Shown: positions 1-3,572 of the stretch, piece by piece
How the letters are laid out: the number at the start of each line of letters is the position of its first letter
Position numbering within the stretch: the stretch's first letter is position 1
IMG/VR virus record: IMGVR_UViG_2595698685_000001
Location: 58,025 to 122,024 of that record
Reading direction: 5' to 3' (one strand)
Length of the DNA: 64,000 bases
From: a virus
Taxonomy: Duplodnaviria > Caudoviricetes
Translations under genes and position numbers: made by a program
Notes under the pieces: generated by a model
What the model saw: only the letters and a program-made list of their open reading frames with translations
Database searches by the model: none
Told to the model about the DNA's origin: nothing

Positions 1-171
1 AACCGTATCCTACATCCAGAAGGTTTTGCATTAGCTAGAGATACTGGTACAGGCTTTTCTCCAGGAGCCTTGTTTGTAGAAGGTGACACATGGGAGTACG
101 ATGAGTACGACTTAGATGTGGCCGCTGCACGTCTTGAAACCAATGGTTTTGATGTAGAACTAATTCGATAA
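1..171 (+). CDS. 3' end of hypothetical protein (truncated by window start)
   Basis: Frame 1 is open from base 1 (NRILHPEGFALARD...FDVELIR) to TAA at 169-171 and is followed by a terminator. Confidence 0.7.
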   Translation, partial: NRILHPEGFALARDTGTGFSPGALFVEGDTWEYDEYDLDVAAARLETNGFDVELIR

Positions 172-187
172 TTGTTGGCACACCCCT

Positions 188-216
188 AAGTCCGAGTCAT
201 TATGACTCGGACTTTT
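188..216 (+). terminator. Intrinsic terminator
   Basis: 12-bp stem AAGTCCGAGTCA/TGACTCGGACTT ending in a T tract, just after the stop codon. Confidence 0.8.
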
Positions 217-258
217 GTGCATTTGAAAGGTCTGCCTGTCCGGATTCAAAAAATGCAC

Positions 259-287
259 TTGCCATTTGCCATCGGACTTGTTATAAT
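259..287 (+). promoter_or_regulatory. Sigma70-type early promoter
   Basis: TTGCCA-17-TATAAT with an A-rich upstream tract. Confidence 0.85.
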
Positions 288-386
288 AGATGCATCAATT
301 GAGAGTACTTCGTTAAGACACAAGTTTTACCGAATTGCTTTTTGCTAATTGGGATACGGAACAGTTCGGCTGCCCCATCACCTTTT

Positions 387-705
387 GGTTATTATATAAC
401 TTTGCAATTACTAATAAATAGGATACAGACTAGCTACACTTCGTAAACCGGCTGAAAGACCCGGATATAGCGGCATAGATTAAGGTTGCCGACCACTATA
501 GCGAAAGGGGTGAGATTCCCTGAGAAGTGTTGCACAACCTCAATTACAGTGTTGGGCGGGACAGGATCTACGCGACACAGATACGGGACGACTTAGCGGT
601 CTCCTTAGCTCGTATTGATTGAGGCATAAGCCAGTGTAGGGTCGATAAGGGGGTTGCCATCCCTTACGGTATCTGATAAAAGTATTTGTAGGTTATATAA
701 TAACC
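387..705 (+). ncRNA. Candidate large structured RNA / leader of obp
   Basis: Nested long-range helices 387-412/681-705, 421-426/669-674, 428-440/633-643, 538-546/616-624, 549-554/573-578, 581-587/609-615 plus local hairpins; no ORF on +; promoter upstream. Confidence 0.65.
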
Positions 706-761
706 CTCTCTCTAATGAGTTGGGCATGTAGCAATAGTATAAACTAACAGAAGGACTGTAA

Positions 762-3572
762 ATGTTTTCTATCTTAGAAGGCCATGAGGGTTTCACCCGA
801 GATCTCTCTACTGGTACGTGGAAAAGTGTTAAGTCCACAGACCATGTCTTTGCAAAAGAATTTAGCTCTAGTAATCCCAAGGGTAAACCCTCTGCCCTAC
901 CATATAAATTTAATGTGGTGGACGAAGTGTACCCGGAAACCCTACGTGACGCACTACTTATGCTGGAGAAGCTAACAAATACTCCACATACTGTAGCAGT
1001 TAGGGGTAAGTGCGTAGTCGCTAGAACTGGAATACGTAGACGTAGAGCTAATTTTGATATATCTATCCCAAGTAAGATTATAGCCTTAGACGTTGATGGG
1101 CTAGACATTGGTGCGGACATTCCCTTCTGGGATCTAGAAGCGCAGGGTAGGTATGTAATAAAACTACTTAATAGTATCAGTGAGGATATGTTCCCACTAA
1201 ATGCAGGGTTTGTAGCTCATGCATCATCTTCTGCTGGCCTTAAAACGGGTATACGTATGCACTTGGTATTGCAGAGTAATATACCTGTGACACAAGGTCA
1301 ATTAAAGTTCCTGTTCACTACTGTTAATGATAGTAGTCGACAAAAGTCCTACGGAGAAATAGCTGACTTAGCTTATTATTCATCCGTACAGGCCCACTAT
1401 TTTGCAGACCCCTTATTCCGTGATGGTATTGAAGATCCGTTTAAAGCGGAGAATAAGTCTCGTCTAGTATATGTTAAGGGCCCGGCAATAAACTTACCGA
1501 ATAATCTTCCTGACTTTGAGGCAACAAGAGGTGAGTTCAAAGAGGAGTTTTTGTCCTTACTTGACCAGATTCAAGGTATTGCAGAACCAACGGATAAAGT
1601 AGAGGATACCATTGCAGAATTAGAAGAGGCTGACGATGGTGTATATCTTCGTATTATACCGAAGCTTTACCACAGAGCTTTGGAGGATGGAGTTGACTTC
1701 TCATGGCTTGAGAAAGAGATAACCCCCGCTCTGACAGAGTACATTATGACCAAGGATAACTCTAGGACAATCAATGATTACTTTGTTAATGGTAGACGTC
1801 AAGCACTGAAAGCATTTGTTAATAACTCCAAACGAGAAATACCTTCCGGCAACCTAAAAGGTATTCCACTCAAGGAGTTAACCTCAGATAATGTACCACA
1901 TAACAACTATCTTGTTATGACTAAAGTCCCACCAGAAGGCACACTTACTTTTGTAAAGGCTAGTCTAGGTACAGGTAAAACAACTGCGGTAGTTCGTTGG
2001 TTAGAGGCAGGAGTTCTCCCTGGGAAGTTCCTAGCTATCACAAATACTAGAGCTTTAGTATCTTCCAATGCTAAGAAGTTTGATGCAGGTCAGTACAATC
2101 AGTCTATTGACATGTTAAACTTCAAACGTGGTACCACCCAACGCATGTCCTCTACTATTCACTCCATACATCGTTTTAAAAACTTTGTCGGAGAGATTGA
2201 TACTATCTTTATAGATGAGTGCGATGCAGTGATGAATGATTTATTGTTTGCCCCTGTTGTTCGCCAACGTAGAGAGTGTATTAACGTGCTAAGAGAACTA
2301 CTGCTTAGTGCAAAACGGGTGATTTTATCAGATGGTGACATTAGCGGAGAAACTATTGAGGCTTATGGGGCTTTAATAGACTTTGATAAACCAGTGAACT
2401 ATTATGTTCATCATCGGAAGATGTTGTCAGGAGCTAATGCATATGAATTCCCTGATGAAAAGAGTATTTGGGTTGCATTGCAAACTAGCTTAGAGCTAGG
2501 GGAGAAGTGTATCTTAGTTTCAGACTGTGGCCCTGACGAACTCAATGAGAAAGGCATGGCTCTTAGGAGAAACACAGATTGTATTGTCAAGGAGATTCAT
2601 TCTAACTCTACTTCTGATATAGATATACGAAGAATCCTAGACTATACTACTGAAGAGCTAACAACTCAACAAATAGATGGGCTATTATGTAGTCCATCTG
2701 TGACAAGTGGAGTAGACTTTAACTACTTTGATAGTGTATTCGTTATAACTCGAACATCCAATCAAGCGCCAAACATGCGCTTTCAGGCAATTAGGCGCGA
2801 CCGTGGAGCTAAGAATATCTACTATTTCATTGATAAATCAACTAGTGGATTTTCCGCAGGTTCTGAGCAATATAATGCGGATGAAGGATGGTTTGAATTT
2901 GCACAGCAGTTGTTTGCTAAACGTAGGGAGTTAGAGTCTAGGAACTATATCAGCACTTTGAGGTATTATTTGCTTGACCAAGGCGCTAGAATAACTATAT
3001 TCAGTGAGAGTTGGGGTAGCATAGATAGTGCTTCCGAGGAGTATACTCAGGAAAGGATAAGAGCAATACTCCACAGTACTCAGGAATACTGTATGCCTAG
3101 ACATGCGGATGCTTATGAAGCCAAGCTAATGCTAGTGCATTACTATCATTTAGAGAGCGTCAAGGATGTTACAGAAGAACTGGTTGCACAGTATATTAGT
3201 GATAAACCAGATCAAAGAGCAGCATTCTTCCACAAGTTACAGGATGTGTTCTGGGAATCTATTAAGAAGTGCAATAATGTAACTATCTCGCCTTTTATAG
3301 AAGCATTGAAAAAGCATAAGAAAGACTTCTTTATTCGTACAGGTCAAAGCTCTAACCCCAAATATGCCAGAATGTACCTAGGTATGATGGGAATTAAATC
3401 TGACTTTGATTTTGACAAGGTTGTGGATTGGTATAGAACCTTTTGTAGACTAGAAGGGATTCCTATTCCAGGCAAGTTCATGACCAGAGAAGAACAGATT
3501 ATGAGAGAAGAGCAACAGTCTGAACTAGGAGTTAGAGCTAATGACAGACCCTCGATGGAAGACGAGACGTAA
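762..3572 (+). CDS. obp: Replication origin-binding protein (N-terminal primase-polymerase-like domain + SF2 helicase)
   Basis: 936 aa; LDVD and RMHL primpol-like motifs; Walker A ASLGTGKT, DECD, TSGVDF, QAIRRDR; T5 synteny upstream of D2. Confidence 0.9.
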   Translation: MFSILEGHEGFTRDLSTGTWKSVKSTDHVFAKEFSSSNPKGKPSALPYKFNVVDEVYPETLRDALLMLEKLTNTPHTVAVRGKCVVARTGIRRRRANFDISIPSKIIALDVDGLDIGADIPFWDLEAQGRYVIKLLNSISEDMFPLNAGFVAHASSSAGLKTGIRMHLVLQSNIPVTQGQLKFLFTTVNDSSRQKSYGEIADLAYYSSVQAHYFADPLFRDGIEDPFKAENKSRLVYVKGPAINLPNNLPDFEATRGEFKEEFLSLLDQIQGIAEPTDKVEDTIAELEEADDGVYLRIIPKLYHRALEDGVDFSWLEKEITPALTEYIMTKDNSRTINDYFVNGRRQALKAFVNNSKREIPSGNLKGIPLKELTSDNVPHNNYLVMTKVPPEGTLTFVKASLGTGKTTAVVRWLEAGVLPGKFLAITNTRALVSSNAKKFDAGQYNQSIDMLNFKRGTTQRMSSTIHSIHRFKNFVGEIDTIFIDECDAVMNDLLFAPVVRQRRECINVLRELLLSAKRVILSDGDISGETIEAYGALIDFDKPVNYYVHHRKMLSGANAYEFPDEKSIWVALQTSLELGEKCILVSDCGPDELNEKGMALRRNTDCIVKEIHSNSTSDIDIRRILDYTTEELTTQQIDGLLCSPSVTSGVDFNYFDSVFVITRTSNQAPNMRFQAIRRDRGAKNIYYFIDKSTSGFSAGSEQYNADEGWFEFAQQLFAKRRELESRNYISTLRYYLLDQGARITIFSESWGSIDSASEEYTQERIRAILHSTQEYCMPRHADAYEAKLMLVHYYHLESVKDVTEELVAQYISDKPDQRAAFFHKLQDVFWESIKKCNNVTISPFIEALKKHKKDFFIRTGQSSNPKYARMYLGMMGIKSDFDFDKVVDWYRTFCRLEGIPIPGKFMTREEQIMREEQQSELGVRANDRPSMEDET

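Follow-up and report, generated by a model that had tools for sequence, protein, structure and literature searches.

In phage lambda, phage T7 and rRNA precursors, long RNA stems are cut by RNase III, and the lambda N leader, the T7 early RNase III sites and the 16S/23S precursor stems have in common a long, near-continuous stem that joins the ends of a folded body. Other phage RNA elements lie in the leaders of replication genes: those of T4 genes 43 and 32, together with the CI RNA located 5′ of the P4 primase-helicase operon, are used for self-control and take the form of hairpins, pseudoknots or a cloverleaf of 20–70 nt. Promoter-driven folded transcripts beside replication functions are also represented by the ColE1 RNA II pre-primer and by T7 and T4 oriF/oriG. 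The families ROOL, GOLLD, OLE, raiA and HEARO, all of which are in Rfam, comprise large ornate RNAs of hundreds of nucleotides with many covarying helices, and they occur in phages.

The RNA described here, in the 5′ leader of the T5 D2 homologue obp, shares something with each of these systems. Like the stems of phage RNase III leaders, its closing stem lies between the promoter and the coding part of an early message; whereas the known RNase III sites are single irregular hairpins or enclose rRNA, this stem surrounds a body whose 15 helices covary, and cleavage of the stem is only predicted. The obp RNA resembles ROOL, GOLLD, OLE, raiA and HEARO in size and in its covarying helices but is always located in the leader of one gene and has no match in Rfam 15. 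Unlike ColE1 RNA II and the promoter-primed origins, it stands in front of an initiator gene, not of a mapped start of replication. Finally, it is a replication-gene leader element like those of T4 and P4, but at ~320 nt it is much larger, and its partner is hypothetical.

The stretch of DNA that we analyzed (64,000 nt, hereafter the window) belongs to a phage genome of 122 kb that has terminal repeats and whose closest named relative is Pectobacterium phage DU_PP_V of the family Demerecviridae. The stop codon of a small upstream gene (position 171) and the obp start codon (762) are separated by 590 bases without a credible ORF. Within 294–761, + strand ORFs are only 31–48 aa long and unsupported, and the gaps in the alignment of relatives are not multiples of three in length. 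An ORF-poor gap was likewise present 5′ of obp in all 12 representative loci listed. The initial annotation had described an ORF-free stretch behind a terminator and its own promoter, and our repeat, promoter and ORF analyses agree with that description. The repeat search detected the terminator hairpin as an inverted repeat with fully (100%) complementary 13-nt arms (188–200/202–214), and inspection by eye indicated that DU_PP_V retains its pairing via compensating changes. A rule-based terminator scan did not list this 188–214 hairpin. The −10 element of the promoter is preceded by TG, and the promoter is conserved in DU_PP_V; judging from promoter spacing, transcription probably starts at ~294–295. 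Between the element and obp, the terminator scan detected no terminator-like site.

We confirmed that positions 387–705 of the window correspond to a + strand RNA domain of ~320 nt in the obp 5′ leader (Table 1). A perfect closing repeat of 14 bp, extended to 387–412/681–705, had been noted in the initial annotation; the repeat search recovered it at 387–400/692–705, and duplex energies supported the extended helix, termed P1, which has 24 pairs in the window and a ΔG of −25.9 kcal/mol, compared with a mean of −7.7 (SD 2.4) for 200 shuffles. All 11 helices previously drawn by eye pair in the sequence as described, and all 11 recur in the RNAalifold consensus of seven sequences, which also added the apical hairpin of P10 and a small hairpin after P1. 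The five wobble positions listed earlier (404/689, 421/674, 545/617, 553/574 and 586/610) are each G-U or U-G on the + strand. The single-sequence fold is mildly unusual, with z scores of −2.46 for the + strand and −1.99 for the − strand. As this fold barely beats shuffles, the case for the structure rests on relatives. An alternative pairing in the single-sequence fold (433–442/524–533) was rejected, being absent by eye from loci L012 and L024. Two of the loops may be T-loop motifs, as the initial annotation proposed. The small hairpin after P1 is weak in the window and has 6 bp, with different paired letters, in L003 and in the T5 type. A promoter-like site, CTGATA-17-TATAAT (673–701, 10/12), overlaps the 3′ strand of P1.

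Table 1. Features of the obp leader and gene in the window (positions are those of the window).
Feature	Position	Strand	Remarks
Intrinsic terminator of upstream gene	188..219	+	12–13 bp hairpin, then T-run
Sigma-70 promoter TTGCCA(259–264)-17-TATAAT(282–287)	259..287	+	11/12 consensus positions
Leader 5′ of closing helix	295..386	+	Alignable to DU_PP_V and T5
Leader motif, near-invariant sequence	354..378	+	Outside P1; can form small hairpin CAG(U)/(G)CUG
P1, 5′ strand of long A+U-rich closing helix	387..412	+	Duplex with 681–705
P2, 5′ strand	421..426	+	Partner 669–674
P3 5′ strand (434–439) and P4 5′ strand (440–444)	434..444	+	Partners 634–639 and 501–505, respectively
Domain within/after P4: P5 (448–451/461–464), P6, P7 (507–510/518–521)	445..521	+	RNAalifold, both alignments
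P6	466–467/497–498 and 471–475/487–491	+	4/6 pairs change on both sides
Conserved single-stranded junction	522..537	+	G524, A525 and G529 invariant in 7 representatives
P8 (538–546/616–624), enclosing P9 (549–554/573–578) and P10 (581–587/609–615)	538..624	+	RNAalifold, both alignments
P10 apical hairpin	590..601	+	4-bp stem, UAGC loop; invariant block 592–599
P3, 3′ strand	634..639	+	RNAalifold, model-fitted alignment
P11 hairpin	645..666	+	7-nt loop 653–659 conserved outside T5-type core; 5/6 pairs change on both sides
P2, 3′ strand	669..674	+	RNAalifold, model-fitted alignment
P1, 3′ strand	681..705	+	Duplex with 387–412
Small hairpin directly 3′ of P1	707..722	+	RNAalifold helix 709–722
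Ribosome-binding site (750–756) and obp ATG (762)	750..764	+	ORF 762–3572
obp, T5 D2 homologue	762..3572	+	AEP/PrimPol-like aa 1–256, helical linker, UL9-type SF2 helicase

The initial annotation had called for an alignment of obp-upstream regions as a check for covariation. An Obp protein search of viral contigs returned 43 loci, two of which (L037 and L045) were dropped for having no upstream DNA; the leader motif was found in 31 of the remaining 41, and these together with the window amounted to 28 distinct sequences. From a MAFFT alignment of 10 sequences we built a covariance model, R1, with 265 positions and 80 pairs, covering 419–678 of the window. Searching 44 sources with R1 produced 18 full-length matches, every one on the + strand and directly 5′ of obp. 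The model scored 159 bits for the window, 166 bits for DU_PP_V and 302–314 bits for 12 loci of one T5-like type; scores fell to 36–37 bits (E ~1e-9) for L023 and L036, 22 bits (E = 6e-5) for T5 and 21 bits for L004. Another 14 T5-type loci showed only a local 9.4-bit match at P10, and 12 of the 44 sources gave no match at E ≤ 1.

In the alignment fitted to the model, 94.0% of pair cells hold standard pairs, versus 36–46% when the partners are slid by 1–3 columns, and 62 of the 80 pairs are changed on both sides. This alignment is biased towards the model; the MAFFT-only alignment, consisting of nine distinct rows with no model fitted, gave 95.3% versus 36–46%, with both-side changes in 35 of the 80 pairs. 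None of 500 shuffles matched the observed values on any of five measures in either alignment. At the level of aligned sequences, these analyses show that compensating changes maintain the helices in different phage genera.

Individual helices bear this out to different degrees. In the model-fitted alignment, all seven pairs of P2 change on both sides with 96.9% of cells paired, and P3 and P4 (helices 2 and 3) are paired in 100% of cells. The window, L006 and T5 all form P3 but use different letters, and P8, P9 and P10 likewise stay paired in the window, L003, L006 and T5 although the letters are wholly different. The weakest of the 11 helices is P5, with 88.9–90.6% of cells paired. P1 lies outside R1 and was assessed separately. 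It comprises 24–33 bp in seven of eight representatives, with ΔG values of −26 to −32 versus −8 to −11 for shuffles. Helices of different sequence form P1 in L003, L006, L012, L022, L005 (the T5 copy) and L004; its letters differ among the window, DU_PP_V and both T5-like types and, less clearly, L023, and a MAFFT alignment of 11 sequences contains both-side changes.

More distant obp loci (L026, L030, L042, L038, L041 and L044) reached at most 9.7 bits with R1 (filters off) and with a further model, R2, which is weak, having only seven base pairs and a poor underlying MAFFT alignment. By these searches, the equally long leaders of distant obp genes (L026, L030, L038 and their kin) appear not to be detectably related. 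We also considered a mobile insertion, given that blastn had first matched DU_PP_V only over 179–396; the full alignment revealed the whole element in diverged form.

The same alignments indicate which strand is folded. Pair cells include 171 G-U/U-G combinations, compared with 17 A-C/C-A combinations. The pairs come from a + strand model that rewards G-U, although an alignment cannot create letters. G-U is far above A-C, and therefore the + strand is the folded strand; a cruciform or a − strand RNA would give a symmetric or a reverse pattern. Together with the strand of the R1 matches, this count upholds the earlier proposal of a + strand RNA as opposed to a DNA cruciform.

Sequencing runs supplied information on transcription of the T5 copy. 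The stretch is contained in 13 runs labelled RNA, four of which, from four studies, were examined. Contigs from one study (X8) end at T5-copy position 1933 and restart at 2046, both with adapter ends, and contigs from a second study (X6) break at 1989 and 2064. The uncovered stretches are thus 1934–2045 in X8 and 1990–2063 in X6, and the contig gap spans the T5 terminator (1908–1931) and promoter (−10 at 1998–2003). The T5 hairpin equivalent to window positions 188–219 forms the end of an RNA-library contig that carries adapter sequence. After the restart, contigs from T5-infected cells cross the whole element to 2900, inside the gene, with no joint. In all four RNA runs, contigs span both P1 strands into obp. 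Coverage was complete in the other two runs (X1 and X5), possibly owing to DNA carry-over or read-through. Contigs of this kind reveal no RNA levels, true ends or RNase III cuts, and their breaks give a weak hint of transcript ends. They suggest a transcription start downstream of the promoter and a common RNA for the element and obp. They also argue against splicing, although rare spliced forms can be missed. The contigs that cross P1 indicate that an unprocessed RNA joining the element and obp exists.

Sequence constraint in the leader is concentrated at two spots, the leader motif and the tip of P10. Across seven representatives, 23 of 260 core columns are invariant, eight of them at the P10 tip, where 592–599 constitutes the only long invariant block of the core; invariant positions that are unpaired number only 10. 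A 13-nt core of the leader motif in which one position may be A or G is present in the window and in the 31 obp loci mentioned above, and blastn aligned 25–26 nt of the motif at 96% identity in T5-type loci. Both the element and the motif are single copy in the 122-kb genome. Scanning viral contigs for the motif yielded 80 loci, 70 of which had at least 700 nt downstream, 18 of these with an obp N-terminus, and R1 matched 10 of the 80 at E ≤ 0.01. The remaining motif loci comprised one unrelated family and scattered matches, as expected for 16 fixed bases. Neither the genome search nor the motif-bearing loci of viral contigs disclosed a second or free-standing copy of the element.

We also analyzed possible pairing between the leader motif and the start of obp. 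In the window this pairing has a ΔG of −18.5, a value reached by none of 300 shuffles; it is marginal in L003 and similar to shuffles in five other representatives. The motif matches the first obp codons at 8–10 of 11 positions with uncompensated changes, and only in T5 does it rank as the single best 11-mer. The unpaired probability of the ribosome-binding region ranges from 0.18 to 0.57 in seven representatives, with no consistent masking. In the distant locus L026, a consensus promoter lies between the long leader and obp, and obp therefore need not depend on its leader there.

The obp product is a protein of 936 aa that matches phrog_3712 ("replication origin binding") with an E value of 0. 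Residues ~390–535 belong to the UL9-type SF2 helicases, as judged from Pfam PF02399 (Herpes_ori_bp; 34.3 bits versus a cut-off of 20, aa 394–534), and UL9 chains in the PDB match Obp with E values of 4e-6 to 1e-5. In the front domain, a DxD motif (D110/D112) and H167 are invariant in 12 homologues. A structural model of residues 1–256 has a mean pLDDT of 81.4, and the top Foldseek rows are all AEP enzymes, with E values of 4e-3 or weaker. These residues aligned only to AEP primase-polymerases (human PrimPol, HSV primase, poxvirus D5/E5 and LigD polymerase), with VIA Z scores of 5.0–6.8 and rmsd values of 4.1–5.3 Å over 150–185 residues, the tool's safe Z being 8. RepB′ primase was among the weak fold-search matches. 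The earlier description of Obp as primpol-like DxD/H motifs fused to an SF2 helicase thus has support, with AEP fold scores that are modest, and the label "primase-helicase" is plausible as far as the structural model goes. According to the available portion of PMC3632103, purified T5 D2 is a bipolar SF2 helicase and a proposed initiator. That portion also cites multiple internal T5 origins seen by electron microscopy and names no mapped origin sequence.

Close relatives of T5 carry two very different cores within nearly identical flanks. The core type tracks the type of Obp residues 51–550: at 28 of 28 loci the nearest neighbour was of the same type. Identity across types is ~98% in the C-terminal 380 residues, which thus lack signal and provide no control. 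This co-occurrence may reflect co-adaptation or plain linkage. The initial annotation had offered an RNP partner, template or primer for Obp as one reading of the RNA; the core–Obp link is one circumstantial support for it, which plain linkage could explain. It is a decidedly doubtful idea, but the Obp front half might recognize its cognate core, the resulting RNA–protein initiator marking, opening or priming a T5-family origin, with core and front half exchanged as one specificity module. If true, a classic model phage would start replication in an RNA-guided or RNA-scaffolded manner.

Our best guess, held tentatively and with somewhat less than even confidence, is that the element serves in the leader as a protein-binding domain, linked to the expression of obp, and that RNase III could cut the stem closing it. 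We link its role to the obp message because of its position, its co-transcription and the lack of a terminator, and we favor a protein-binding platform because the body is elaborate and diverges freely around two invariant spots. The nascent leader would fold into a compact body closed by P1, and this folded body would act as a specific binding platform, with the P10 tip and the leader motif as likely contact sites. The partner would most likely be an early protein of the phage, perhaps Obp through its front half, and binding would couple how much Obp is made, or when, to the state of the replication machinery. RNase III leaders have a double-stranded stem of about two helical turns or more, and P1, with 24–33 pairs in the window and six other representatives, would be long enough as a substrate. 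Cleavage would detach the folded body, after which the obp message would start just 5′ of the small hairpin at 707–722. Several observations speak against this proposal: with its 15 helices, the body greatly exceeds in size the protein operators known from phage mRNAs; no regulatory switch was found, given the accessibility of the ribosome-binding site in the seven representatives; where the leader motif could pair with the first codons, changes are uncompensated; and L026 has its promoter between leader and obp. As for the complex cis-regulatory leader suggested in the initial annotation, position and co-transcription fit, but the missing terminator after the element and the inconsistent masking of the ribosome-binding site do not.

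The length of P1, which recalls the stems flanking rRNA precursors, could also serve a stand-alone RNA acting in trans: RNase III would cut P1 and free an RNA of ~270–300 nt, for example a scaffold or decoy for a protein of host or phage, for which the obp site only supplies a strong early promoter. A core G+C content of 0.50 versus 0.41 for the window and genome, a size and number of helices resembling large RNAs without assigned function, and the promoter directly before obp in L026 are in keeping with this possibility. We nevertheless consider it rather unlikely, as the element has no terminator behind it, contigs extend across both P1 strands into obp in every RNA run examined, the element directly precedes obp in 18 of 18 full-length model matches, and no free-standing copy was found. 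Also unlikely is that the region is or abuts a T5-family origin, where the RNA would open or prime the DNA via an R-loop or Obp recruitment, and core and Obp front half would form an initiator–origin specificity module. The element adjoins an initiator gene whose product joins an AEP-like fold with a UL9-type helicase, its core co-occurs with the Obp type, P1 is A+U-rich, and the available portion of PMC3632103 names no mapped T5 origin sequence. By contrast, positions 150–800 contain only two 10-nt two-copy families and no iteron-type direct repeats, selection acts on RNA pairing with G-U tolerance and not on duplex DNA sites, and the genome contains the leader motif only once.

A riboswitch through which a small molecule, for example one of the nucleotide pool, sets obp expression would suit the leader position, the multi-junction fold and the conserved unpaired junction bases. 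It is highly improbable: a P1 of 24–33 bp is too stable to switch, an expression platform is missing in that neither a terminator nor consistent sequestering of the ribosome-binding site was detected, invariant unpaired positions are few, the core is freely swapped between close relatives, and no Rfam riboswitch matched. We regard as close to negligible the chance that the structure operates in DNA, either as a cruciform or as a signal for initiation that the primase domain reads in single-stranded DNA. In its favor, the inverted repeat of 14 bp is perfect, G-T wobbles can also form in + strand single-stranded DNA, and the known substrates of RepB′ primase, one of the weak fold matches, are DNA hairpins. 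However, fifteen nested helices over 320 nt with the observed excess of G-U over A-C exclude a symmetric cruciform, the region is transcribed in T5, and unwinding 320 bp to fold as DNA is implausible. The protein-binding leader domain remains our preferred, if tentative, reading.

We compared the RNA with described families. Scanning positions 1–3000 of the window against Rfam 15 at E ≤ 10 gave five matches, none within 294–761; positions 340–765 gave a single match, to CRISPR-DR2, at 17.8 bits versus a gathering score of 37, and positions 1690–2505 of L026 gave six matches, all far below the gathering score. Consistent with the earlier statement that the RNA is unannotated and belongs to no named family, the T5 record has no feature at this stretch, and that of BF23 has only a predicted terminator and promoter. 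The Rfam scans lent no support to a resemblance to a conserved region of RNase P or to a loop of cobalamin riboswitches, and ROOL, GOLLD, OLE, raiA and HEARO gave no Rfam match. A tRNA or tmRNA was discounted, with ARAGORN reporting 0 genes in the window, as was a group I intron, given the lack of an Rfam match, the intergenic location of the element and the absence of a joint in contigs of the four T5 RNA runs.

The open literature searched contained no description of an obp-leader RNA, nor did the available portions of PMC10644984 and PMC3632103; a term search of preprint 10.64898/2026.10.21.760802 returned 0 matches. As far as Rfam 15 and the literature searched show, this is an undescribed RNA class, restricted within the scope of our search to T5-family phages, of a general kind that is known, namely large structured leader or non-coding RNAs. 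With the window, the class gains a diverged member, carried by a relative of a Pectobacterium phage, and the strand count of G-U versus A-C, the hint from T5 contig breaks, the AEP fold check and the test of the core–Obp link are also new here. For seventy years T5 has served as a model phage, and a covarying RNA of ~320 nt directly before the D2 homologue offers a concrete handle on its replication origin and on the control of D2. The class joins the few large structured RNAs listed for phages and is open to easy genetics in E. coli with T5 or BF23. The T5-type stretch was found by blastn in 442 phage records. In the window scan, weak Rfam matches at 135–236 correspond to the upstream terminator hairpin.

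Among the obp loci fetched from viral contigs by Obp protein search, the 28 T5-like loci (L004-L040) carry two types of RNA core, the core being the part of the element that lies inside the closing helix P1. Sixteen of these loci have the T5 type and 12 the L006 type, and the flanks around both types are near-identical. Across the 28 loci, the two core types are each linked to a distinct variant of the first 550 Obp residues (obp codons 51-550). Two loci, L033 and L022, carry letters of the opposite type at Obp residue 12 and in a short stretch preceding the gene, and the pairing of core type with protein type is retained in both despite these opposite-type letters nearby.

In a predicted structural model, the front domain of this 'origin binding protein', Obp residues 1-256 (window 762-1529), resembles an AEP/PrimPol fold, in which the DxD and His residues are invariant. 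The pRN1 primase has a helix-bundle domain with which the following Obp residues, 257-358, align in the model (Z 5.8). Passages of the paper on T5 D2, the homologue of obp, describe a helicase; a primase domain goes unmentioned in them (PMC3632103).

Within P1, the window contains a promoter-like site matching 10 of 12 positions. By eye, the equivalent position in Pectobacterium phage DU_PP_V reads TTGATG-17-TATAAT with a TG; no good equivalent was found in T5. The site may serve as a secondary obp promoter. The start of the near-invariant leader motif (window 353-362) recurs with one change as a direct repeat at 580-589, where it forms the 5′ strand of the inner helix P10. Because T5 does not repeat the start of its leader motif as the P10 5′ strand, this sequence resemblance is probably due to chance.

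The more distant locus L026, whose Obp shares 63% protein identity, has approximately 800 nt of non-coding sequence (1690-2505) downstream of a consensus promoter near 1705-1735, as does L027. A second consensus promoter is also present in L026. Neither of the two RNA covariance models of the element matched the L026 locus. A hairpin at 2081-2117 of L026 resembles the invariant P10 tip.

Promoter and promoter-like sites in the window and at locus L026
Feature	Sequence	Location	Position relative to other features
Promoter-like site (10/12)	CTGATA-17-TATAAT	window 673-701	inside P1 3′ strand
Second consensus promoter	TTGACA-18-TATAAT	L026 ~2435-2463	immediately 5′ of obp

Very long, promoter-driven non-coding leaders of about 800 nt also precede obp at the most distant loci (L038, L039, L041, L043, and L044; 43-44% identity). 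Homology of these leaders to the window element was not detected; many helices are predicted within them by RNAalifold from the five sequences.
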